Assembly: GCA_002632355.1 (NCBI GenBank)
Contig: NSJJ01000015.1
Coordinates: 8,730-72,729, forward strand
Reading direction: 5' to 3'
DNA from: Sulfuricella denitrificans
GTDB lineage: Bacteria > Pseudomonadota > Gammaproteobacteria > Burkholderiales > Sulfuricellaceae
Length of the DNA: 64,000 nt
A program made the translations under genes and the position numbers. Each line of letters opens with the position of its first letter. Positions within the stretch are counted from its first letter, which is position 1. The notes beneath the pieces were generated by a model. It made no database searches. It was not told the origin of the DNA and was given only the letters and a program-made list of their open reading frames with translations. Below are positions 22,879 to 33,755 of this stretch, one piece after another.

Positions 22879-23976
22879 TCAGGAGGCGTCGAGCATGCGC
22901 TGCAGTGACAGGCGCGCCATTTCGGCTTCCTGTGCCGGCACCTTGATCTGGTTGACCACCTTGCCTTCCACCAGATTTTCCAGGATCCAGGCCAGGTGCT
23001 GCGGGTCGATGCGCGCCATGGTGGAGCACATGCACACCGTCGAGGACATGAACTGCACCAGCTTGCCTTCCGGCTTGAAGCGGTTCGCCAGGCGGTTGAC
23101 CAGGTTCAGTTCGGTGCCGACCAGCCATTTCGTGCCGGGCGCGGATTCGGCGATGGTCTTGATGATGTATTCGGTGGAGCCGACGTAATCGGACAACTGG
23201 CACACCTCGAAGCTGCACTCGGGGTGGGAAATCACCAGCCCGTCCGGGTGCTGGGCGCGGAACTTCTCGATGTGCTGCGGCTGGAACATCTGGTGCACCG
23301 AGCACAGGCCTTTCCATAAAATAATCCTGGCCTTCCTGATCTGCTCCGGCGTCAGCCCGCCCATCGGCTGGTCGTAGTCCCACAGCACCATTTCGTCGAG
23401 CGGGATGCCCATCTTGAAGCCGCTCCAGCGCCCCAGGTTCTGGTCGGGGAAGAACAGCACCTTCTCGCGCCGGGCGAAGGACCATTCGAGGATTCTGGTG
23501 GCGTTGCTGGAAGTGCAGACGATGCCGCCGTGTTCGCCGCAGAAGGCTTTCAGGTCGGCGGCGGAATTGATGTAGGTCACCGGCGTGACGCTTTCGTCGG
23601 GATCGAGCACCGTTTTCAGCTCGCGCCAGGCGCGCTCGACCTTGGCCAGGCTTGCCATGTCTGCCATGGAACAGCCGGCGGAAAGATCGGGCAGGATGGA
23701 AATCTGTTCAGGACGCGAGAGGATGTCCGCCACTTCGGCCATGAAATGCACGCCGCAAAAAACGATGTATTCCGCCTCGGAAGAAGCCGCCTGGCGCGAA
23801 AGCTTGAGCGAGTCGCCGGTAAAATCGGCATGGCAGATCACGTCGTCGCGCTGGTAATGATGCCCCAGAATGACCAGACGTTTGCCCAGTCTGGCCTTGG
23901 CGGCAAGGATGCGGGCCTGGCAGTCGCCGTCCTGCATCTGGCTGAACTTGTCGAAGGTAATGGGACTGACTTGCAT
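22879..23976 (-). CDS. nadA: Quinolinate synthase
   Basis: ILGHHYQ, FCGVHFMAE, AGCSMAD, YINSAA, CSVH and HPEC motifs. Confidence 0.95.
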   Translation of the reverse strand: MQVSPITFDKFSQMQDGDCQARILAAKARLGKRLVILGHHYQRDDVICHADFTGDSLKLSRQAASSEAEYIVFCGVHFMAEVADILSRPEQISILPDLSAGCSMADMASLAKVERAWRELKTVLDPDESVTPVTYINSAADLKAFCGEHGGIVCTSSNATRILEWSFARREKVLFFPDQNLGRWSGFKMGIPLDEMVLWDYDQPMGGLTPEQIRKARIILWKGLCSVHQMFQPQHIEKFRAQHPDGLVISHPECSFEVCQLSDYVGSTEYIIKTIAESAPGTKWLVGTELNLVNRLANRFKPEGKLVQFMSSTVCMCSTMARIDPQHLAWILENLVEGKVVNQIKVPAQEAEMARLSLQRMLDAS

Positions 23977-24038: not shown

Positions 24039-24959
24039 TCAGCCGATCGCGCGAATATCGGGTGAAGCCTTGCCGTCGTTCAGAGGGCGGCACTGTTCCA
24101 GCACCTCTGCCGCGCGTCCGCCGCTGCCCCACAGGCGGATACAACGCTCCACCTCGGCGCGCACCGCTTCCCGGATGCTGCGCTTGAGCGCCATGTAACC
24201 GTTGTCGCCGATGCCGGGGTTGTCCCGGATATGCTGCACGGCGAGGTCGGAGAGCGCAGTGTAGTAGTTGATCTTGGCCACACCGTTGGCAATCAGCTTG
24301 CGGAACTGTTCATCCGACAAACCGCTGCCGCCATGAATCACCAGCGGGATGCCCACGGCCTCGTTGATTTTTGCCAGACGCGCATAATCCAGCCTGGGCG
24401 CGCCTTTCATGCGCCCGTGTACCGTGCCGATGGAGACTGCCAGGCAATCCACACCGGTTCGCGCCACGAACACCCTGGCTTCCGAATGCGAGGTGTATTC
24501 GAATTCGTGCGACAGATTCTCGGCATTCTCGCCCTCCCCTCCCGGCACATAACCCAGTTCGGCCTCGACGGCCACTCCGCTGGCATGCGCCAGGGTGGCC
24601 ACTTCGCGCGTTAGCCGCAGATTGTCCTCGAAGGGCTGATCCGAGCAGTCCACCATCACCCCGCTGAAACCGCAGCGGATCGCCCGTTCGGCGGATTCGA
24701 GACTACGGCCATGATCGAGATGGATTGCCACCGGCACCCTGGCACGCCGCGCAGCCGCCACCGCAGCCGGTGCCAGCAGGTCAAAATCGTAGTAATCGAA
24801 ATGGGATTCGGCCAGATTGAGAATCACCGGCGCACGATAATTCTCCGCTGCCTTGATGATGGCCTCGAGAAAATCCAGCGTGACCACGCCGAACGCCCCA
24901 ACTGCATAAGCGTGGCGATAGGCGTGGCCCAGCATGTCTTTCATGTGCACGAGTGGCAT
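24039..24959 (-). CDS. Class II (metal-dependent) ketose-bisphosphate aldolase family protein, divergent
   Basis: HLDHG, VEAELG, SIGTVHG, VIHGGSG and KIN motifs; not the canonical CbbA/FbaA sequence. Confidence 0.85.
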   Translation of the reverse strand: MPLVHMKDMLGHAYRHAYAVGAFGVVTLDFLEAIIKAAENYRAPVILNLAESHFDYYDFDLLAPAAVAAARRARVPVAIHLDHGRSLESAERAIRCGFSGVMVDCSDQPFEDNLRLTREVATLAHASGVAVEAELGYVPGGEGENAENLSHEFEYTSHSEARVFVARTGVDCLAVSIGTVHGRMKGAPRLDYARLAKINEAVGIPLVIHGGSGLSDEQFRKLIANGVAKINYYTALSDLAVQHIRDNPGIGDNGYMALKRSIREAVRAEVERCIRLWGSGGRAAEVLEQCRPLNDGKASPDIRAIG

Positions 24960-24974
24960 GATGTCCTTGAGTTC

Positions 24975-26120
24975 TTAACCGGTGGATACTTCAGCCGCCA
25001 GCCCGCCACGCAATTCGAGCGCCACCTTGAGAGCAGCATCGGCGCTTTCGGCCAGTACGTTGAAATGCCCCATCTTGCGGCCGGGGCGAGCGCTCTGCTT
25101 GCCATACAGGTGGAGTTTTGCGCGCGGCTGGCTCAGCACCGGGGCCCAGGGCGGCTCCTGCCCGTTGCGCCACAGATCACCCAGCAGGTTGACCATCGCC
25201 ACCGGACGCAACAGATCGGGTGCGCCCAGCGGCACGTCCGCCAGTGCCCGCACCTGCTGCTCGAATTGTGAAGTGAGGCAGGCATTCAGGGTGTAATGTC
25301 CGCTGTTGTGCGGCCGTGGCGCAATTTCGTTAACCACCATCCGGCCGTCGCCAAGCACGAAGAATTCCACCGCCAGCACACCGCAGTAATCGAGCGCGGC
25401 AGCAATAGCGCTGGCGGTCTCGAGCGCCTTCCCGGCCATTTCCTCGGTGACGGAAGCCGGGACGATGCTGATATCGAGAATCCCATCGGCGTGCCGGTTC
25501 TCTGCGACCGGGAAGGCCGCGGTCTGTCCGTCCGTCCGGCGCGCCACCACTACCGAGATTTCCGTTTCTAGCGCAAGCCAGGCTTCCAGCACGCAGGGCA
25601 CCGCGCCCAGCCTTTCGAACGCGCTTTCCAGTTCGGCAAAACTGTTGATCCTGGCCTGTCCCTTGCCGTCGTAGCCGTTGCGTGCGGTCTTGAGCAGGGC
25701 AGGCACGCCGATGCTATGGAATGCGGCAGCCAGGTCGCCCGAATTTTCCACGGTCGCGAACGGGGCAGTCACAAATCCGTGCGACTGCAGGAAAGTCTTT
25801 TCATCACGGCGATTCTGGACAATGGCGACAGCCGCAGCGCCGGGACGCACCGGGCAAAACTGCGCGAGGAATTCCAGGCTGCCGGCCGGCACATTCTCGA
25901 ATTCAATGGTAACCGCCGCGCAAGCCCGCCCCATGCGCTCCAGCGCGGCATGGTCGCGGTAGTCCGCGCACAGATGAATGTCGGCCAGCGCACCCGCCGG
26001 GCTTTCTGGATCGGGGTCCAGCACCATCACGCGGTAGCCCATGCTGCGCGCGGCCACAGCAAACATGCGCCCGAGCTGGCCACCACCGAGAATGCCAAGC
26101 GTGGCAGACGGCAGGATCAT
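24975..26120 (-). CDS. purK: N5-carboxyaminoimidazole ribonucleotide synthase
   Basis: [36 protein letters not shown] and [11 protein letters not shown] at 26120 overlaps the purE stop. Confidence 0.96.
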
Positions 26121-26614
26121 GACAATTCCGGCAGGGTCGAGTTTTGTGCGGCCTCGCTCTGGGCAGCGCGAAAGACCTCCAGCCGGCTGGCTGTTTCGGG
26201 ATCGTGCAGCGCCAGCATGGCGGCGGCGAACAGGGCAGCATTGGCTGCGCCGGCCTCGCCAAGGGCAAAAGTGGCGACGGGTATCCCTTTCGGCATCTGC
26301 ACGATGGACAGCAGCGAATCGATGCCCTTCAGGTAACGCGATGGCACCGGAACGCCCAAAACCGGCACCGCCGTCTTGGCTGCCAGCATGCCGGGCAGGT
26401 GTGCCGCGCCGCCCGCACCGGCGATGATGCAAGCCAGTCCGCGCCCAGCAGCCTCCTCGGCGTATTTGAACAGCAGGTCGGGGGTACGATGGGCTGACAC
26501 CACGCGCGCTTCATAGCTCACACCCAGGTTGCGCAGCATGTCGCAGGCATGCCGCATGATTTCCCAGTCGCTGGTGCTGCCCATGACGACACCGACTTTC
26601 ACTTTTTCAAGCAT
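26117..26614 (-). CDS. purE: N5-CAIR mutase
   Basis: [30 protein letters not shown] and [13 protein letters not shown]. Start is 26614 or 26623. Confidence 0.96.
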
Positions 26615-26655
26615 TTCTCTCATTCCCTGATCTTTGCCCCTTGATGTTCCGGCAG

Positions 26656-27294
26656 TCACGATAGTGCGTCGAAACTGTTGCTGACCGGGTTGTAGCGCAG
26701 CAATTCCCCGCGTTCCATATCAAAATACCAGCCGTGCAGTGCCAGTTTCTTTTGCGCGACCCGCTCCAGAATCCAGGGAAAAGTCAGAAGATTGTCCAGC
26801 GACACCAGAATGGCCTCCTGCTCGCAGGCCCGCGCCTGCACTTCCAGCGGGTCGCCATGCATACGGGAAATCACCCGGTTGCGCGCATTGCTGGCGACTT
26901 TCATCCAGCTGGAAATAAATCCTGCCTGAGCGTCCGCCTCCGGCGCATGCTTCAGTAATGACCGGATACCGCCACATTGAGCGTGTCCCAGCACGATAAT
27001 ATTTTCCACTTCGAGGTGGCGCACCCCGAATTCGAGGGCCGCGCTGGTACCGTGATAATTCCCGCTGGTCTCGAACGGCGGAACCAGGTTAGCCACATTG
27101 CGAATGATGAACAGATCGCCCGGATCGCAATCGGTCACAATGGCCGGGTCCACCCTGGAATCGCAACACCCCACCACAATCGTCTTGGGTGACTGGCCCT
27201 GCTTTGTGAGGCGGTCGAACAGGGCGCGATTCTCCGCATAATTCTGGCTATGGAAGCGTTTGAAGCCATCAACAAGTTTTTCAATGTGATTCAT
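26656..27294 (-). CDS. can: Beta-class carbonic anhydrase
   Basis: Zinc ligands in GCCDSRV and LGHAQCGG; [12 protein letters not shown]. Confidence 0.93.
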
Positions 27295-27296
27295 GT

Positions 27297-27731
27297 TCAA
27301 TTCTTAGATGAGTGATTGTTTCGCGTTTCTGCAGCCTGCACTTCGCCAGGATAGGGGTAGCGCAGGTGGCCAAAGCGGATCAGCAGCACCGCCAGGGTCA
27401 GCATCAGGATCGAACCGGTGACCGCGAGCATGCGCCAGTCGTCCATGGCCTTCATGTCCAGGATCAGGTAGCGCGCCAGCGCCACCATGCCGATATACAG
27501 CGGAAAGCGCACCGGCAATTTGCCTGTGCCGTAATACAGCCCGACCATCGCCAGCACTTCCAGGTAGAGAAAGAGCAGCAGCAGATCGGCCAGGGTGACC
27601 TGTGCTGCCCGCACCATGACCACGACTTCGCTGCCCATGGCGAACACCGTGGCAATGGCGATCACCAGCAAGCCGATATGCTCGACCAGTGAGAGCATCC
27701 ACTTGTTGAATTCCTGAATCGGCTTTTTCAT
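27297..27731 (-). CDS. PsiE family membrane protein
   Basis: Four hydrophobic helices with LADLLLLFLYLEVLAMVGLYY and LPVRFPLYIGMVALARYLIL. Confidence 0.8.
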   Translation of the reverse strand: MKKPIQEFNKWMLSLVEHIGLLVIAIATVFAMGSEVVVMVRAAQVTLADLLLLFLYLEVLAMVGLYYGTGKLPVRFPLYIGMVALARYLILDMKAMDDWRMLAVTGSILMLTLAVLLIRFGHLRYPYPGEVQAAETRNNHSSKN

Positions 27732-27799
27732 CGTTCCTCTCCCCAATACTGCGCAATGCATGGATAATCATCACAGGCTGTTCAAATCACGGAGTGCGC

Positions 27800-28210
27800 A
27801 TGGAAATCACCTGCTATCGCGACCCGGAGCTGGCACGCGAATCCCACCTGCTGCCTGCCGCAACCTACAATCTGGCACACACCCTGCTGGCCCGCAACCC
27901 GTCAGGCAGCCTGTTCGTCCCGATCCGCGCCATGCAGTACCTGGCGATTCTGGATGCGGAGGAATTCGTCTTCCTCGACGGCGCGCGCAAATGCTGGATC
28001 GACATCGCCTGGCAGAATTTCCGGCCTCAGGCCCGTACCTCACTGGATGAACCGGTGGCGTATGAAGCGGTTTACTATCAGACTGGCGCCGCAAATCTCA
28101 TGCCACGCCTGCAGGCAGAACTGCCCCGCGCCCTGAACGCCCTGGCCGCGAAGGGGCGCATCGACGGGCCGGCGCGGGTACTCAAATTCCCTTCACCGGC
28201 GCGTCAGTAA
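27800..28210 (+). CDS. Conserved hypothetical protein
   Basis: Fills the gap between psiE and the cbb operon with host-like codon usage; motif FVPIRAMQYLAILDAEEFVF; no recognisable domain. Confidence 0.7.
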   Translation: MEITCYRDPELARESHLLPAATYNLAHTLLARNPSGSLFVPIRAMQYLAILDAEEFVFLDGARKCWIDIAWQNFRPQARTSLDEPVAYEAVYYQTGAANLMPRLQAELPRALNALAAKGRIDGPARVLKFPSPARQ

Positions 28211-28213
28211 TTT

Positions 28214-28516
28214 TTAATCGTCCTCACCCAGCTCCGGGTCCCATCCCTCTTCGCGGGCGGCACTGATGGCCTGGGCATAAAAGCGGGCGTGCCGCTCGCG
28301 CAGGGCTTCCGGCAAGCGGCTGGGAATATGCGCATAGGGCTCCCAGGCAGCATAAACCTGCTCGTAGAGGTTCTGCATGCGCGCCGAATCCCATCCTGCG
28401 CAGGTTTCTGTTTCAGGCAGGATGCCGAACACCCAGGCATCGCGCACCAGGCGGCCGAGGTGGGTCAGGCCGGCATTGGTATCCTGATCGATACCGACAT
28501 AAGTTTGTAGCGTCAT
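28214..28516 (-). CDS. Conserved hypothetical protein translationally coupled to cbbO
   Basis: ATG overlaps the cbbO stop (ATGA); 100 aa with RDAWVFGILPETETCAGW and GWDPEL motifs. Confidence 0.75.
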   Translation of the reverse strand: MTLQTYVGIDQDTNAGLTHLGRLVRDAWVFGILPETETCAGWDSARMQNLYEQVYAAWEPYAHIPSRLPEALRERHARFYAQAISAAREEGWDPELGEDD

Positions 28517-30852
28517 CGTGTGAGCCCCGCATAAAGTACCGGCAATTTCTCCGGCAGACGTTCCACATGATCCACGACCATGTAGTTCCTGGCCCCGAAA
28601 ATCCGTGAGACATATTGATCCGCACGCGGATCGAGCGACATGCAGAAAGTGGTCACGCCGGAACGCGCCATTTCCTCCACGGCTTTCTTGGTATCGTAAC
28701 GCAGATACTGCGGATCGCGCACATCCACGTCAGCCGGCTCGCCGTCGGTGATCACCAGAAGGAGTTTCCTGGCCGACTTCTGCAGCTTCAGATAGTGCCC
28801 GGCATGGCGGATGGCCGCGCCCATGCGCGTGGAAAGCTGCCCGCTCATGCCTGCCAGACGGGATTTCGGTGTTTCGTTGTAGGGTTGGTCGAAATCCTTG
28901 AAACGGGAATATTCTACGTTGTGGCGCCCATCCGAGCAGAAACCGTGAATCGCGAAGGGGTCGCCGATCTTGTTGATGGCGTCCGCCAGGAGCACAGTGG
29001 CCTGGCGCTGCAGATCCAGCACACTGTAATCCTGCCCGCTCACTTTATCGTTGGTGGATTCCGACAGGTCAAGCAGCACCATCACTGAAATATCGCGCAC
29101 CTTGCGCACCGAACGCATCATGATGCGCGAGTCGGGTTGCTGCCCCATGCGGATATCGATCATGGCACGGATGGCCGCGTTGACGTCAACCTCGTCACCA
29201 TCTTCCAGCTTGCGGATGCGCGTCACACCCTGCGGCTGCAGCGCATCGAGCAGGAATTTAAGCCTGCCGATGGTGCGCTTGTGCTGTGAGGTGATATCGT
29301 CAATGAGCTGCAGATCACCGGCTTTCGGACGCTTTTCCAGCACGGTGGCCCAGGCAGGGCGTTCGAGCTGGATCTGGTAATCCCATTCCGAGTAATGGTA
29401 GGGCTCCGAAACCGGCTCCTTGCCTTCCAGCTCGTTGTAGGATTTGCCCATGTCCTCATAGGGGAAGAGCTCCGTGCCCAGCACCCAGATTTCTTCCGCG
29501 TCGTCGCCGGCGTTCTCCACATCGATTTCGTTGGCGAACTCCATCAGGCTGACGTGTTTGCGCACCTGTTTCGGAGCGTCATAACCCGCCGCCATGGCCT
29601 TGTCGAAATCGAACTCTTCGAATTCCCAGAAATAGCGGTTGTCGTCGCGGTAGGGTGCGGTGAGCGTGTCGCTACGGGGATTGAATGGAATGCGCTTTGC
29701 CATGAACTCGTGCGCCAGCTGCACGCCGATGTCCCAGGAGACCTGGTTGGTATCGAGGCGCTCCGCAGCCTGCTTGAACAATACCCGCCCCTGGGCGATC
29801 CACGGATCGTTGTCCTGGTGACCTTCATCCAGCAGCGCGCGTGCCAGTCGATTTAGATAATCACCCGCCGACTTGCCCTGGCTGGATTCAATCGTGTGCA
29901 ACTGCGCCCACAGATGGCCGAGGCCTGGAAACTTGCGGATCGACAGCGTTTCCACCCGGGCATCCTCGATCACGCTGATCACCGCCATCTGCCAGGGATT
30001 CAGCGCTTCGGCAGAAATCGGGTCGCGAGTATAGACGATATGCGCGGCGCTATGGGCGGCTGCAGCGCGATACATTTCCAGGCCGGGCAGTCTGGTGTCA
30101 CCAATACTTTGATCATCGTAAGCATCCGGCAGGTGGATGAAATATCCTTCCACGAAAGGCTGGTATCCCTCCCGCGTCTCGAAGTCGCCGGAAGTGGGCT
30201 TCATGAAGAAATCCCGTGCCCACAATGCGCGCAGATACATATTGATGCGCCGCTGCACGTCGATGAAAAGCGTGCCCTTGCGCTCTTTCTGCAGCATGGC
30301 CAGCGATTCCTTGGACTGCAGGCTGAAGTAGTTGCCCTGCTCCGGATAGTTGGTGCGATGGGCGTGCGCGCCCCACAACGCCCAGCGGCGCAGCCCACCC
30401 AGGGTGAGCTGGCTGAACAGCATTTCCAGATTTTCCAGCATCGGGCGCACGCCGCGCGGCGCCTGCGACAGCAGGGTGTTTAGGAATTGCAGGTAGGAGC
30501 GGAACAGGGTTTCGTCACCGAGACGGTTGGCTGCGGTGGGCGATGTGCTGAGCACCAGCTCGATCACCGCACCCGAGGTCTTGGAAGCCAGCTCCAGTGC
30601 AGTCTGCACCAGATCTGGAATGATGTCCTCACCGATTTCCTTGGCCACCAGCGGTGCATGGTCAATCCAGGTGGCGATCAGGTCATCGCCTTTTCCCAGG
30701 CTCTTCAGCGCGGCAGCGCCTTTGAGGTAATTATCCAGACCGCGCGCACTGAACACCTTGGCGGCTTCCAGCCAGGCGGACTGCAGGCTTTCCTGCAATT
30801 CCGGAGAAAGTGCGTCGATCAGTTCCTGATAGTCTTCGAGATTGATAGCCAT
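28513..30852 (-). CDS. cbbO: RubisCO activase adaptor CbbO (VWA domain)
   Basis: C-terminal VWA MIDAS LLDLSES ... STRMGAAIRHA ... VITDGEP; lies directly downstream of cbbQ. Confidence 0.93.
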   Translation of the reverse strand: MAINLEDYQELIDALSPELQESLQSAWLEAAKVFSARGLDNYLKGAAALKSLGKGDDLIATWIDHAPLVAKEIGEDIIPDLVQTALELASKTSGAVIELVLSTSPTAANRLGDETLFRSYLQFLNTLLSQAPRGVRPMLENLEMLFSQLTLGGLRRWALWGAHAHRTNYPEQGNYFSLQSKESLAMLQKERKGTLFIDVQRRINMYLRALWARDFFMKPTSGDFETREGYQPFVEGYFIHLPDAYDDQSIGDTRLPGLEMYRAAAAHSAAHIVYTRDPISAEALNPWQMAVISVIEDARVETLSIRKFPGLGHLWAQLHTIESSQGKSAGDYLNRLARALLDEGHQDNDPWIAQGRVLFKQAAERLDTNQVSWDIGVQLAHEFMAKRIPFNPRSDTLTAPYRDDNRYFWEFEEFDFDKAMAAGYDAPKQVRKHVSLMEFANEIDVENAGDDAEEIWVLGTELFPYEDMGKSYNELEGKEPVSEPYHYSEWDYQIQLERPAWATVLEKRPKAGDLQLIDDITSQHKRTIGRLKFLLDALQPQGVTRIRKLEDGDEVDVNAAIRAMIDIRMGQQPDSRIMMRSVRKVRDISVMVLLDLSESTNDKVSGQDYSVLDLQRQATVLLADAINKIGDPFAIHGFCSDGRHNVEYSRFKDFDQPYNETPKSRLAGMSGQLSTRMGAAIRHAGHYLKLQKSARKLLLVITDGEPADVDVRDPQYLRYDTKKAVEEMARSGVTTFCMSLDPRADQYVSRIFGARNYMVVDHVERLPEKLPVLYAGLTR

Positions 30853-30863
30853 GGCTTAGCCCC

Positions 30864-30964
30864 GTGAAAAGTGAAAAGTGACTCGCCGTCATGCGGCTCA
30901 GGTGAAACGTGGGGACGGGATCGGATTTCTCGCGCTTCACATTTCACGTTTCACCCTTCACACA
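30864..30964. repeat. Inverted arrays of GTGAAAN / NTTTCAC heptamers in the cbbQ-cbbO spacer
   Basis: GTGAAAA x2 + GTGA (30864-30881), GTGAAACGTG (30902-30911), and CTTCAC-ATTTCAC-GTTTCAC-CCTTCAC (30935-30961). Confidence 0.85.
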
Positions 30965-31768
30965 TCAGAAAAATGTGGTTACTGCCGCATCCAGCGCATC
31001 GCGCATATCGGGATCGTCGGTGATCGGACGCACCAGGGCCACGCGGCAGGCCTTGACCGGATCGACACCGGTGGCGATCAGACTTCCAGCGTAAATCAGC
31101 ATGCGCGTCGAGATGCCTTCGTCCAGTCCGTGGCCCTTGAGATTGCGGGCGCGCTCGGCGATGGAAACCAGCTTGCCGGCCACTTCTGCGTTGACGCCGG
31201 TTTCGTGGGCAACGATCTCGGTTTCGATGGCGTGCTCGGGATAGTTGAAGTCAAGGCCGCCGAAACGCTGCTTGGTGGACTGCTTCAGATCCTTCATCAG
31301 GCTCTGGTAGCCGGGGTTGTAGGAAATCACCAGCTGGAAATCGGGATGGGCGTTCACCAGCTCGCCCTTCTTTTCCAGCGGCAGCACGCGGCGGTTGTCG
31401 GTCAGCGGGTGGATCACCACGGTGGTGTCCTGGCGCGCTTCCACCACTTCGTCCAGATAGCAGATCGCACCGTGCCGTGCGGCGATTGCCAGCGGGCCAT
31501 CCTGCCAGCGCGTGCCGTTGGCATCGAGCAGAAAGCGGCCGACCAGGTCGGAAGCGGTCATGTCCTCGTTGCAGGCCACGGTGATCAGCGGCTTGCCCAG
31601 TTTCCAGGCCATGTGTTCGACGAAGCGGGTCTTGCCGCAGCCGGTCGGGCCTTTGAGCATCATCGGCATACGCACGCTGTAGGCGGCTTCGTACAATTCA
31701 ACCTCGTCCGAGACGGGGTGGTAGTAGGGCTCTTTTTCGATACGGTACTGCTGGATGATGTCGCTCAT
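30965..31768 (-). CDS. cbbQ: RubisCO activase AAA+ ATPase CbbQ (MoxR type)
   Basis: [28 protein letters not shown] and LKQSTKQRF. Start at ATG 31768 (MSDIIQQY). Confidence 0.96.
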
Positions 31769-31861
31769 GGTCGGTCTCCATCTATCGGTCAACACAGGGG
31801 CGTAAACGGCCGACTTTCTCAGCCGCTTGCGTTCCCATGCGGAAAACGTCATTTATCTGTT

Positions 31862-31900
31862 TTTTAAAAACCCCCGCTGCCGAAAAGGATGGCAGCAGGG
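31862..31900 (-). terminator. Intrinsic terminator after cbbS
   Basis: Minus strand CCCTGCTGCC-atccttttc-GGCAGCGGGG followed by TTTTT. Confidence 0.7.
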
Positions 31901-31911
31901 AAACCGCTACA

Positions 31912-32268
31912 TCAAATGGTCTTGCCGCGGAAAATTACCATCGCTGCGCCTTGGGACTGGTTGAAGTTGTTGTAACCAATCAGACGCACATGGTTGTTGG
32001 GATTGGCCTTGTGGCAAGCTTCGGCTTCCGCCAGCACCTTGGTCACATCGGTTTCGCCGAACATCGGCAGCTTCCACATGTACCAGTAGGAATCCATCAG
32101 GTATTCCGGTTCGACATGCTCAATCGCCGGGTTCCAGCCTTTGGAAACCAGGTATTCCACTTGCGTCTTGATCTCGTCTGCTGTCATGGCAGGCAGGTAG
32201 GAGAAGGTCTCGAACTTGCGGCTGGCAGGATCGCTCAGACGCGATTTGTAATCCATCACTTCACTCAT
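31912..32268 (-). CDS. cbbS: RubisCO small subunit (form IA)
   Basis: [28 protein letters not shown] and HVRLIGY. Confidence 0.98.
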
Positions 32269-32333
32269 GATTTGCTCCTTAAATTAAGTCTCAGGGCGGG
32301 TCAGGCCACGGGGCCATAACCCGCCATCGGTGA

Positions 32334-33755
32334 TTACTTGTGCGCTACGTCCAGTTTGTCGACGGTGTCGAACTCGAACTTGATTTCCTTCCATGTTTCC
32401 ATGGCGATTTTCAGTTCCGGGCTGCTGGCTGCCGCCTTGGTCAGGATGTCCTTGCCTTCTTTCTCAATTTCACGGCCCTCGTTACGTGCTGCCACACTGG
32501 CTTCCAGTGCGACGCGGTTTGCCGCTGCACCGGCTGCGTTGCCCCAGGGGTGACCCAGCGTGCCGCCGCCGAACTGCAGCACGGAGTCGTCACCAAAGAT
32601 ATTGACCAGTGCCGGCATGTGCCACACGTGGATACCGCCGGATGCAACCGGCATCACGCCAGGCATGGAACCGAAGTCCTGATCGAACATGATGCCGCGG
32701 CTGCGGTCTTCCTTGATGAACTCGTCGCGCATGATGTCGATCCAGCCCAGGGTTGCATCACGGTCGCCTTCCAGCTTGCCCACCACGGTACCGGAGTGCA
32801 GGTGGTCGCCACCAGACAGACGCAAGCACTTGGTGAGGACGCGGAAGTGAATGCCGTGGTGCGGGTTGCGGTCGAGCACAGCGTGCATGGCACGGTGGAT
32901 GTGCAACAGCATGCCGTTGTTGCGGCACCAGTTGGCCAGCCCTGTGTTGGCAGTGAAGCCGCCGGTCAGGTAGTCGTGCATGATGATCGGTGCGCCGATT
33001 TCCTTGGCGAACTCGGCACGCTTGTACATTTCTTCCGGTGTCGGAGCGGTCACGTTCAGGTAGTGACCCTTGCGCTCGCCGGTTTCGCGCTCTGCCTTCA
33101 GAGTGGCTTCCTGCACGAACTCGAAACGATCGCGCCAACGCATGAACGGCTGGCTGTTAACGTTCTCGTCGTCCTTGGTGAAGTCCAGACCACCGCGCAG
33201 GCACTCGTAAACTGCACGACCGTAGTTCTTGGCGGACAGGCCCAGTTTTGGCTTGATGGTGCAGCCCAGCAGCGGACGTCCATACTTGTTCATCTTGTCG
33301 CGCTCGACCTGAATACCCTGAGGAGGTCCACCGCAGGTCTTCACATAAGCGATCGGGAAGCGGATGTCTTCCAGACGCAAAGCGCGCAGGGCCTTGAAGC
33401 CGAATACGTTACCAACCAGCGAGGTCAGCACGTTAACGATGGAGCCTTCTTCGAACAGGTCGATCGGGTAAGCCACAAAAGCGTAGAAACAGGTGTCATC
33501 GCCAGGGACGTCTTCGATGCGATAGGCTCGGCCCTTGTAGTAATCCAGATCGGTCAGCAGATCGGTCCACACCGTGGTCCAGGTACCGGTTGAAGATTCG
33601 GCGGCCACAGCTGCGGCAACTTCTTCACGGGGCACACCAGGCTGCGGGGTGATTTTGAAACAGGCGAGGATGTCGGTATCCAGCGGGGTGTATTCCGGCG
33701 TCCAGTAAGTTGCGCGATATTCTTTCACGCCAGCGTTGTAGGTCTTGACTGCCAT
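32334..33755 (-). CDS. cbbL: RubisCO large subunit, form IA
   Basis: [21 protein letters not shown], catalytic [18 protein letters not shown] and VASGGIH. Confidence 0.99.

Follow-up and report, generated by a model that had tools for sequence, protein, structure and literature searches.

The window analysed here, a stretch of 64,000 nucleotides from contig NSJJ01000015.1 of Sulfuricella denitrificans, carries at positions 24039–24959 the gene for a 306 amino acid class II aldolase paralogue (P0001), a member of the 'CbbA-Dabb' family of Rubisco operons that lacks the Dabb domain. We propose that P0001 is an active dihydroxyacetone phosphate (DHAP)-dependent aldolase with an acceptor site for something other than fructose-1,6-bisphosphate (FBP), and that it supports Rubisco. 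We give this reading a probability of about one half, and its substrate stays at the level of candidates. The gene lies on the minus strand, a point missed in a first-pass annotation of the same DNA, which had described the protein as a class II aldolase with an intact metal and DHAP site and an apparently remodelled 6-phosphate site.

HMMER and MAFFT alignments revealed a complete set of metal-binding and catalytic residues (D82, H83, E134, H181, H209, K229 and N231), and P0001 also keeps the loop Glu142/144 and Lys185, four residues beyond the histidine (His+4). The zinc and DHAP motifs listed in the first-pass annotation were all found, namely HLDHG (80–84), GTVHG (178–182), HGGSG (209–213) and KIN (229–231). 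In the fructose-bisphosphate aldolase (FBA) of Helicobacter pylori the 1-phosphate lysine is Lys184 (PMC10665668); by homology Lys185 would be its counterpart in P0001, and the family-specific Arg183, as the neighbour of Lys185, probably belongs to the DHAP side as well. Scanning one genome for each species gave at least 593 stretches encoding relatives, from which the best 80 loci (59–94% identity) were analysed; these and P0001 itself make up the 81 family sequences referred to below. All seven catalytic residues are kept in 76 of the 81. The core of P0001 is under strong purifying selection, the ratio of nonsynonymous to synonymous substitution rates (dN/dS) across the barrel (codons 1–288) being 0.07–0.09 against each of the four closest relatives (L034–L037). 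From its residues we infer that P0001 is a catalytically active aldolase.

The other half of the active site is different. In Escherichia coli FbaA, Asn35, Ser61 and Arg331 hold the glyceraldehyde-3-phosphate, or 6-phosphate, half of the substrate. P0001 was aligned pairwise with HMMER to the solved class IIb aldolases 7ncc, 7nc7 and 1rv8, and with MAFFT to E. coli FbaA, GatY, KbaY and YdjI and to the canonical FBA of the same genome; these alignments, together with the secondary structure of an AlphaFold2 (AF2) model, are the basis of the residue equivalences. Both methods place Gly24, Ala50 and Met256 at the positions of the FbaA trio. Gly24 (codon 24888–24890, minus strand) stands in for Asn35 and is Asp or Gly in the family. 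Ala50, at the position of Ser61, opens the Ala50-Glu51-Ser52-His53 segment (24801–24812, minus strand) of the β2-α2 loop, in which Glu51 and His53 are family-specific and conserved. Gly254-Tyr255-Met256 (24192–24200, minus strand) replaces the Asp-Pro-Arg turn that carries Arg331. This canonical DPR turn aligns with D252-N253-G254-Y255-M256 with register shifts of at most two residues between methods, and whichever register is taken there is no Arg or Lys among residues 252–258. The long C-terminal helix of the AF2 model begins at residue 255, the place of the DPR turn in canonical enzymes. A compensating conserved Arg or Lys near residues 252–262 was considered and rejected: K259 and R260 lie one helical turn further on and are unconserved in relatives. 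The replacements that had been read by eye, FGVVT (23–27), PVILNLAE (44–51) and DNG (252–254), are thus borne out by alignment, and the comparison with FbaA, GatY and KbaY found no equivalents of the Asn, Ser and Arg. Class IIb enzymes grip the 6-phosphate of FBP with Ser49, Arg259 and the partner subunit's Arg280'; in SqiA, whose substrate is not a bisphosphate, Ala takes the place of Arg280, and residues 51–52 of the β2-α2 loop form the sulfonate pocket (PMC10665668). By analogy, an alternative anion pocket in the β2-α2 loop of P0001 is conceivable.

The same pattern runs through the 81 family sequences. Position 24 is D in 51, G in 25, E in three, and S and N in one each; position 50 is A in 58, I in 19, L in two, and V and P in one each, with Ser or Thr in none; position 256 is T, S, M, G or others, and never Arg or Lys. 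Several residues are conserved in the family and unlike those of canonical enzymes, among them L49, E51, S52, H53, D58 and F59 of the β2-α2 loop, and further Y137-V138-P139, R183-M184, Y232-Y233 and Y/H255 on the active-site face; Glu51 is present in 77 of 81 sequences and Tyr or His at 255 in 76. On these counts the replacement of the distal trio is a family trait and no chance drift. In part it extends further. We built a tree from the nearest representatives of 50%-identity clusters and reference sequences, of which 149 were long enough to place; 34 of these fall in the clade of P0001 and 115 outside it. Since 104 of the 115 outside representatives also lack the (D/E)P(R/K) motif, loss of the Arg is usual in a large radiation of short, class IIb-like aldolases, most of which are uncharacterised. 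The idea of a remodelled 6-phosphate site therefore stands as far as the absence of the trio goes, but the missing Arg is not peculiar to P0001.

The genome, which is 100% complete, contains exactly two PF01116 genes, P0001 and a 354 amino acid class II FBA on contig 27. The latter adjoins pyruvate kinase and has FNVNN, SPVIMQGS and DPR, that is, all three distal residues; it is the canonical enzyme that the first-pass annotation had proposed looking for. Because the distal trio is absent and a canonical FBA is encoded elsewhere, P0001 is probably not the housekeeping aldolase for FBP and sedoheptulose-1,7-bisphosphate (SBP). This supports the earlier suggestion that it is not the Calvin-cycle aldolase and may cleave a different ketose phosphate.

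Profile searches point the same way. PF01116 was the only Pfam domain matched by P0001 (293.6 bits against a Pfam cut-off of 25.5; profile positions 1–277, complete), and the only NCBIfam model passed was TIGR00167 ("ketose-bisphosphate aldolase"), which is of subfamily level. None of the NCBIfam equivalog cut-offs for FBA or tagatose-bisphosphate aldolase was reached. The FBA shortfalls all exceed 90 bits, the best scores being 288 bits for NF005284 (cut-off 406), 255 for NF005288 (396) and 250 for TIGR01859 (343). Dabb-bearing orthologues tested against NCBIfam likewise missed the FBA equivalog cut-offs and, since they score like P0001, a curated functional model covering the aldolase(-Dabb) family is absent. 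The AF2 model has a predicted local distance difference test score (pLDDT) of 94.7. Its top Foldseek matches are the short class IIb aldolases SqiA, Bacillus FBA and YdjI, with template modelling (TM) scores of 0.91–0.96, and canonical class II FBP aldolases give 0.82–0.94; FBA, SqiA and YdjI are not told apart by this comparison. Molecule names in the PDB sequence table can mislead: the sequence file of 8q57 reads 'Tagatose-1,6-bisphosphate aldolase kbaY', and the entry title is that of the class II sulfofructose-phosphate aldolase YaSqiA.

Gene order ties the family to Rubisco. Of the orthologous loci, 47 extend at least 7 kb upstream of the aldolase, and in 35 of these cbbL/S/Q/O genes lie there on the same strand; purE is found upstream in 17 of the 47 and purK in four, and a purE-like gene in 28 of all 80 loci. 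Downstream there is no recurrent gene, and the aldolase therefore usually closes its operon. Other neighbours in individual loci include CbbX, SbtA, carbonic anhydrase and DabBA. Rubisco is present in all 13 genomes that carry the paralogue, compared with 59 of the 121 sampled from the order as a whole (these genomes are mutually related and not independent; the tally of 59 takes in G026, an unpublished genome). Because of this upstream context, the co-occurrence with Rubisco and the local cbbLSQO genes, we identify P0001, by sequence and gene order, as the Rubisco-operon-linked aldolase paralogue that is annotated 'cbbA' in the cbb1 operon of Acidithiobacillus ferrooxidans. The adjacency to purK had been taken as a hint of nucleotide or sugar salvage. 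That hint finds no support, with purK upstream in 4 of 47 loci and cbb genes in 35, and with purE-purK standing together with carbonic anhydrase beside cbbLSQO. An aldolase-nadA adjacency occurs in 2 of 80 loci, the closest relatives L034 and L037 only, and a functional meaning for it was rejected on that count.

Some loci show other arrangements. Twelve of the 47 have no cbb genes upstream, for example that of Thermopetrobacter sp. TC1 (L083:6488–11173), in which the aldolase-Dabb gene lies behind a two-subunit 2-oxoacid:ferredoxin oxidoreductase. In an uncultured Gallionella (L056:7897–9423) a 508 amino acid open reading frame (ORF) fuses PurC (SAICAR synthetase) to a β-carbonic anhydrase, just upstream of purE and the aldolase-Dabb gene.

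P0001 and its four closest relatives (L034–L037, 89–94% identity) are 292–306 amino acids long and lack Dabb. All other orthologues have 385–427 amino acids and a C-terminal Dabb domain (PF07876) of about 100 amino acids, which the first-pass annotation had missed. P0001 is 59–72% identical to Dabb-bearing proteins of Sulfuricella, Gallionella and others, and the clade of 34 cluster representatives into which it falls (FastTree support 0.999) is mostly Dabb-fused. At the place of Dabb it has an unconserved 15-residue C-terminal tail (24042–24086, minus strand), in which pLDDT goes down to 50–73, and the tails of the five Dabb-less relatives are unlike in both length and sequence. We rejected the possibility that Dabb has become a gene of its own, as the whole genome gave no match to PF07876. 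The lineage of P0001 recently lost Dabb and kept a constrained, catalytically complete barrel. More distant paralogues (about 46% identity) at L027:7878–8876, L028:7884–8846 and L029:7999–8922 lack the Zn ligands, the catalytic Asp and Dabb alike. These three have QIEV in place of HLDH and VNRMN in place of GTVHG, and the genes are placed after cbbQ-cbbO-dabB-dabA; in L029 the aldolase-like gene is followed by one for Sua5/TsaC, a bicarbonate-using enzyme.

The architecture is not new, the orthologous arrangement being already in the literature. The cbb1 (carboxysome/Rubisco) operon of A. ferrooxidans ends in a "cbbA" (Pfam01116 and Pfam07876) that is co-transcribed with cbbL1S1-cso-cbbQ1O1 (PMC2942843), and the canonical cbbA of that organism lies in the pyk-containing cbb3 operon (PMC2942843; PMC6458275). 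Likened by its description, the cbb1 CbbA (AFE_1676, ACK80290) resembles the orthologues of P0001 in combining barrel and Dabb and in being the last gene behind cbbQ-cbbO, and like P0001 it is a second aldolase beside a canonical, pyk-linked one. P0001 differs in lacking Dabb and in its place, which is not immediately after cbbO but behind purK, in a neighbouring unit. The function of the cbb1 CbbA is annotation only, and we found no assay of the aldolase(-Dabb) family in the literature. The cbbA of Hydrogenophilus thermoluteolus, cited in the Pfam description of Dabb, is presumably of the same kind.

With the canonical class II FBP/SBP aldolases (E. coli FbaA, the class IIb enzymes of Bacillus, Thermus and H. 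pylori, and the 354 amino acid FBA of this genome) P0001 shares the fold, Zn ligands, catalytic Asp, loop Glu and DHAP 1-phosphate site, but it lacks equivalents of Asn35, Ser61 and Arg331 (Ser49 and Arg280' in H. pylori). Among characterised enzymes the closest parallels are YdjI, an L-glycero-L-galacto-octuluronate-1-phosphate aldolase, and SqiA, a sulfofructose-1-phosphate aldolase, which are likewise short, class IIb-like and without the distal Arg: SqiA has Ala257 in its place and YdjI has no DPR. Structures of both match the P0001 model well (8q59, SqiA, TM 0.94; 6ofu, YdjI, TM 0.96). Among class II aldolases that have been characterised, only these two lack the Arg; both cleave ketose 1-monophosphates, which by analogy indicates that loss of the Arg accompanies non-bisphosphate substrates. 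P0001 is only 36–38% identical to either, however; YdjI keeps the Asn, which P0001 does not, and the β2-α2 loop AESHF and Tyr-rich periphery of P0001 are specific to its family. Neither sulfoglycolysis nor ydj-type neighbour genes are present at the P0001 locus. GatY and KbaY have the same short class IIb architecture and about 33–36% identity, but they keep the Asn, the Thr and the DPR Arg and need GatZ or KbaZ; P0001 has none of these.

Within the window, cbbL-cbbS-cbbQ-cbbO (28513–33755, minus strand; PF00016/PF02788, PF00101, PF08406/PF07728 and a VWA domain) encode form I Rubisco and the CbbQO activase. After cbbO comes a conserved 100 amino acid gene (orf100; 28214–28516, minus strand), and then a conserved 138 amino acid gene on the plus strand (orf138; 27794–28210) that separates two transcription units; neither has a Pfam match. 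The second unit, psiE-carbonic anhydrase-purE-purK-aldolase, runs on the minus strand. It begins with a PsiE-family membrane protein (27297–27761; PF06146) and continues with a β-carbonic anhydrase (26656–27300; PF00484, 159 bits), purE, one of two copies in the genome (26117–26659; PF00731, 208 bits), and purK, the gene for N5-carboxyaminoimidazole ribonucleotide synthase (24975–26120; NF004677, 567 bits, cut-off 441), whose listed ORF is over-extended at the 5' end. Reading of the sequence confirmed that the aldolase lies 15 nt behind purK; the spacer (24960–24974, minus strand) contains an AAGGA Shine-Dalgarno sequence. Downstream by 62 nt is nadA, for quinolinate synthase (22879–23976, minus strand; TIGR00550 passed), the only copy in the genome. 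The aldolase is on the same strand as cbbO and 3.6 kb downstream of it, with orf100, orf138, psiE, the carbonic anhydrase gene and purEK between, and no terminator-like sites were predicted between the genes from cbbLSQO to nadA, the purK-aldolase spacer included.

The psiE, β-carbonic anhydrase, purE and purK genes overlap successively by 4 nt (26117–27761), which suggests translational coupling of the membrane protein with carbonic anhydrase and the enzymes of aminoimidazole ribonucleotide carboxylation. Across the orthologous loci the 100 amino acid gene travels with cbbO and the aldolase in 35 of 80, and the 138 amino acid gene is present in 22 of 80, on the opposite strand in all but one. 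At a second Rubisco locus of the same genome (L114; contig 7, 9000–26000), cbbR lies divergently to a row of genes in the order cbbM (form II)-cbbQ-cbbO-methyltransferase-DNA alkylation repair-purC-purE2. Genes of purine carboxylation are accordingly divided between the Rubisco loci, purE1-purK by form I and purC-purE2 by form II. That pur genes, together with carbonic anhydrase, are spread over the two Rubisco loci fits a theme of CO2 and bicarbonate, not salvage.

As to mechanism, P0001 very likely would bind DHAP and form a zinc-stabilised enediolate like any class II aldolase. The acceptor half-site would be built from Glu51, His53, Tyr137, Tyr232/233 and Tyr255 instead of the Asn/Ser/Arg clamp. 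The preferred substrate would then be not FBP but rather a ketose 1-phosphate with a far end that is short, lacks a phosphate or occupies a different pocket, a kind made more likely because the Arg-less YdjI and SqiA act on such compounds. P0001 may serve the CO2-fixation module; it might, for instance, dispose of or recycle a sugar phosphate or aldehyde derived from Rubisco or photorespiration. The canonical 354 amino acid aldolase beside pyruvate kinase would do the bulk FBP/SBP chemistry. Candidate substrates, put forward as speculation, include xylulose-1,5-bisphosphate and ketose phosphates derived from glycolaldehyde, and others are conceivable.

Several points weigh against this proposal. 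Zgiby in 2000 and Qamar in 1996 are said to have found that mutation of the E. coli residues one at a time leaves some activity; Arg183, next to His181, could in principle bind phosphate; and FBP activity of P0001 and its family is possible. They would suit a second Calvin-cycle FBP/SBP aldolase isoenzyme that binds the distal phosphate via other residues or water, an explanation that also accommodates the intact catalytic and DHAP site, the linkage to Rubisco operons, the passing of TIGR00167 'ketose-bisphosphate aldolase' and the conservation of Arg183 and Lys185 near the active site. We consider it rather unlikely, since the distal residues are absent from 81 of 81 sequences save for the one Asn at position 24, and the acidic Asp24 (51/81) and Glu51 (77/81) line the would-be phosphate site. 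Moreover, P0001 falls over 90 bits short of every FBA equivalog cut-off, a canonical FBA is already in the genome, and residues 183 and 185 fall, by homology to H. pylori Lys184, on the 1-phosphate side. It also counts against the proposal that in the window the aldolase stands behind purK, in a transcription unit separate from cbbLSQO. The purine neighbour, with nadA on its other side, the shared strand and the lack of a predicted terminator, would instead suit a salvage aldolase (for deoxy- or methylthio-pentulose-1-phosphates, for example) linked with purK, or a source of DHAP for NadA, which consumes it; the purE-like gene upstream in 28 of 80 loci can be added on that side. Such a role is very unlikely given that purK is upstream in just 4 of 47 loci and nadA downstream in 2 of 80, that pur genes travel with carbonic anhydrase and Rubisco under a CO2/bicarbonate theme, that the known 5-deoxy- and methylthio-ribulose-1-phosphate aldolases belong to another fold family (PF00596), and that nadA is a single housekeeping copy.

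The remaining objection concerns catalysis itself. At least one of the seven catalytic residues has been lost in 21 of the 34 clade representatives, against 2 of the 115 outside, which suggests that the function common to the deeper clade may not be catalysis. Because of these losses, exemplified by L027–L029, which persist in clusters with cbbQO-dabBA, the wider family appears prone to the pseudoenzyme state while staying in inorganic-carbon and Rubisco clusters. P0001 might accordingly have a mainly non-catalytic role, as scaffold, regulator or sensor of the Rubisco/CbbQO/inorganic-carbon module, with vestigial aldolase chemistry. We regard this as improbable for P0001: in its own subfamily (at least 59% identity) the seven residues are complete in 76 of 81 sequences, the purifying selection on the core takes in the catalytic residues, and the lineage retained the barrel although it dropped Dabb, the part likeliest to serve a non-enzymatic role. 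A GatY/KbaY-like tagatose-1,6-bisphosphate aldolase, to which the identity of about 33–36% and the shared short class IIb architecture might point, is effectively refuted and was rejected: P0001 reaches 210 bits with TIGR01858, whose cut-off is 443, the Asn, Thr and DPR Arg of GatY and KbaY are absent from P0001, and the GatZ/KbaZ partner (PF08013) is absent from the complete genome.

A more specific form of the proposal that P0001 is an active, non-FBP aldolase would give the aldolase(-Dabb) family a so far overlooked task in the Rubisco module, the repair or recycling of metabolites, its rebuilt acceptor pocket handling a Rubisco misfire or photorespiratory product. It might cleave the inhibitor xylulose-1,5-bisphosphate to DHAP and phosphoglycolaldehyde, or condense glycolaldehyde with DHAP, and would in this way complement the CbbY/CbbZ phosphatases and the co-located CbbQO/CbbX activases. 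We advance this as a long shot, though not a negligible one.

Annotation and metabolic models count genes of the P0001 type as the Calvin-cycle FBP aldolase, and on the sequence evidence the half of the site that recognises glyceraldehyde-3-phosphate differs in every member. Few genes accompany proteobacterial Rubisco operons as regularly as this widespread family, whose neighbours there are CbbQO, CbbX, carbonic anhydrase, DAB and SbtA. P0001 offers a convenient minimal form of it, consisting of the barrel only, with no Dabb, its catalytic residues intact and under strong selection. The substrate or the non-catalytic role of the family could reveal a new Rubisco support function, and would be relevant to the engineering of CO2 fixation.

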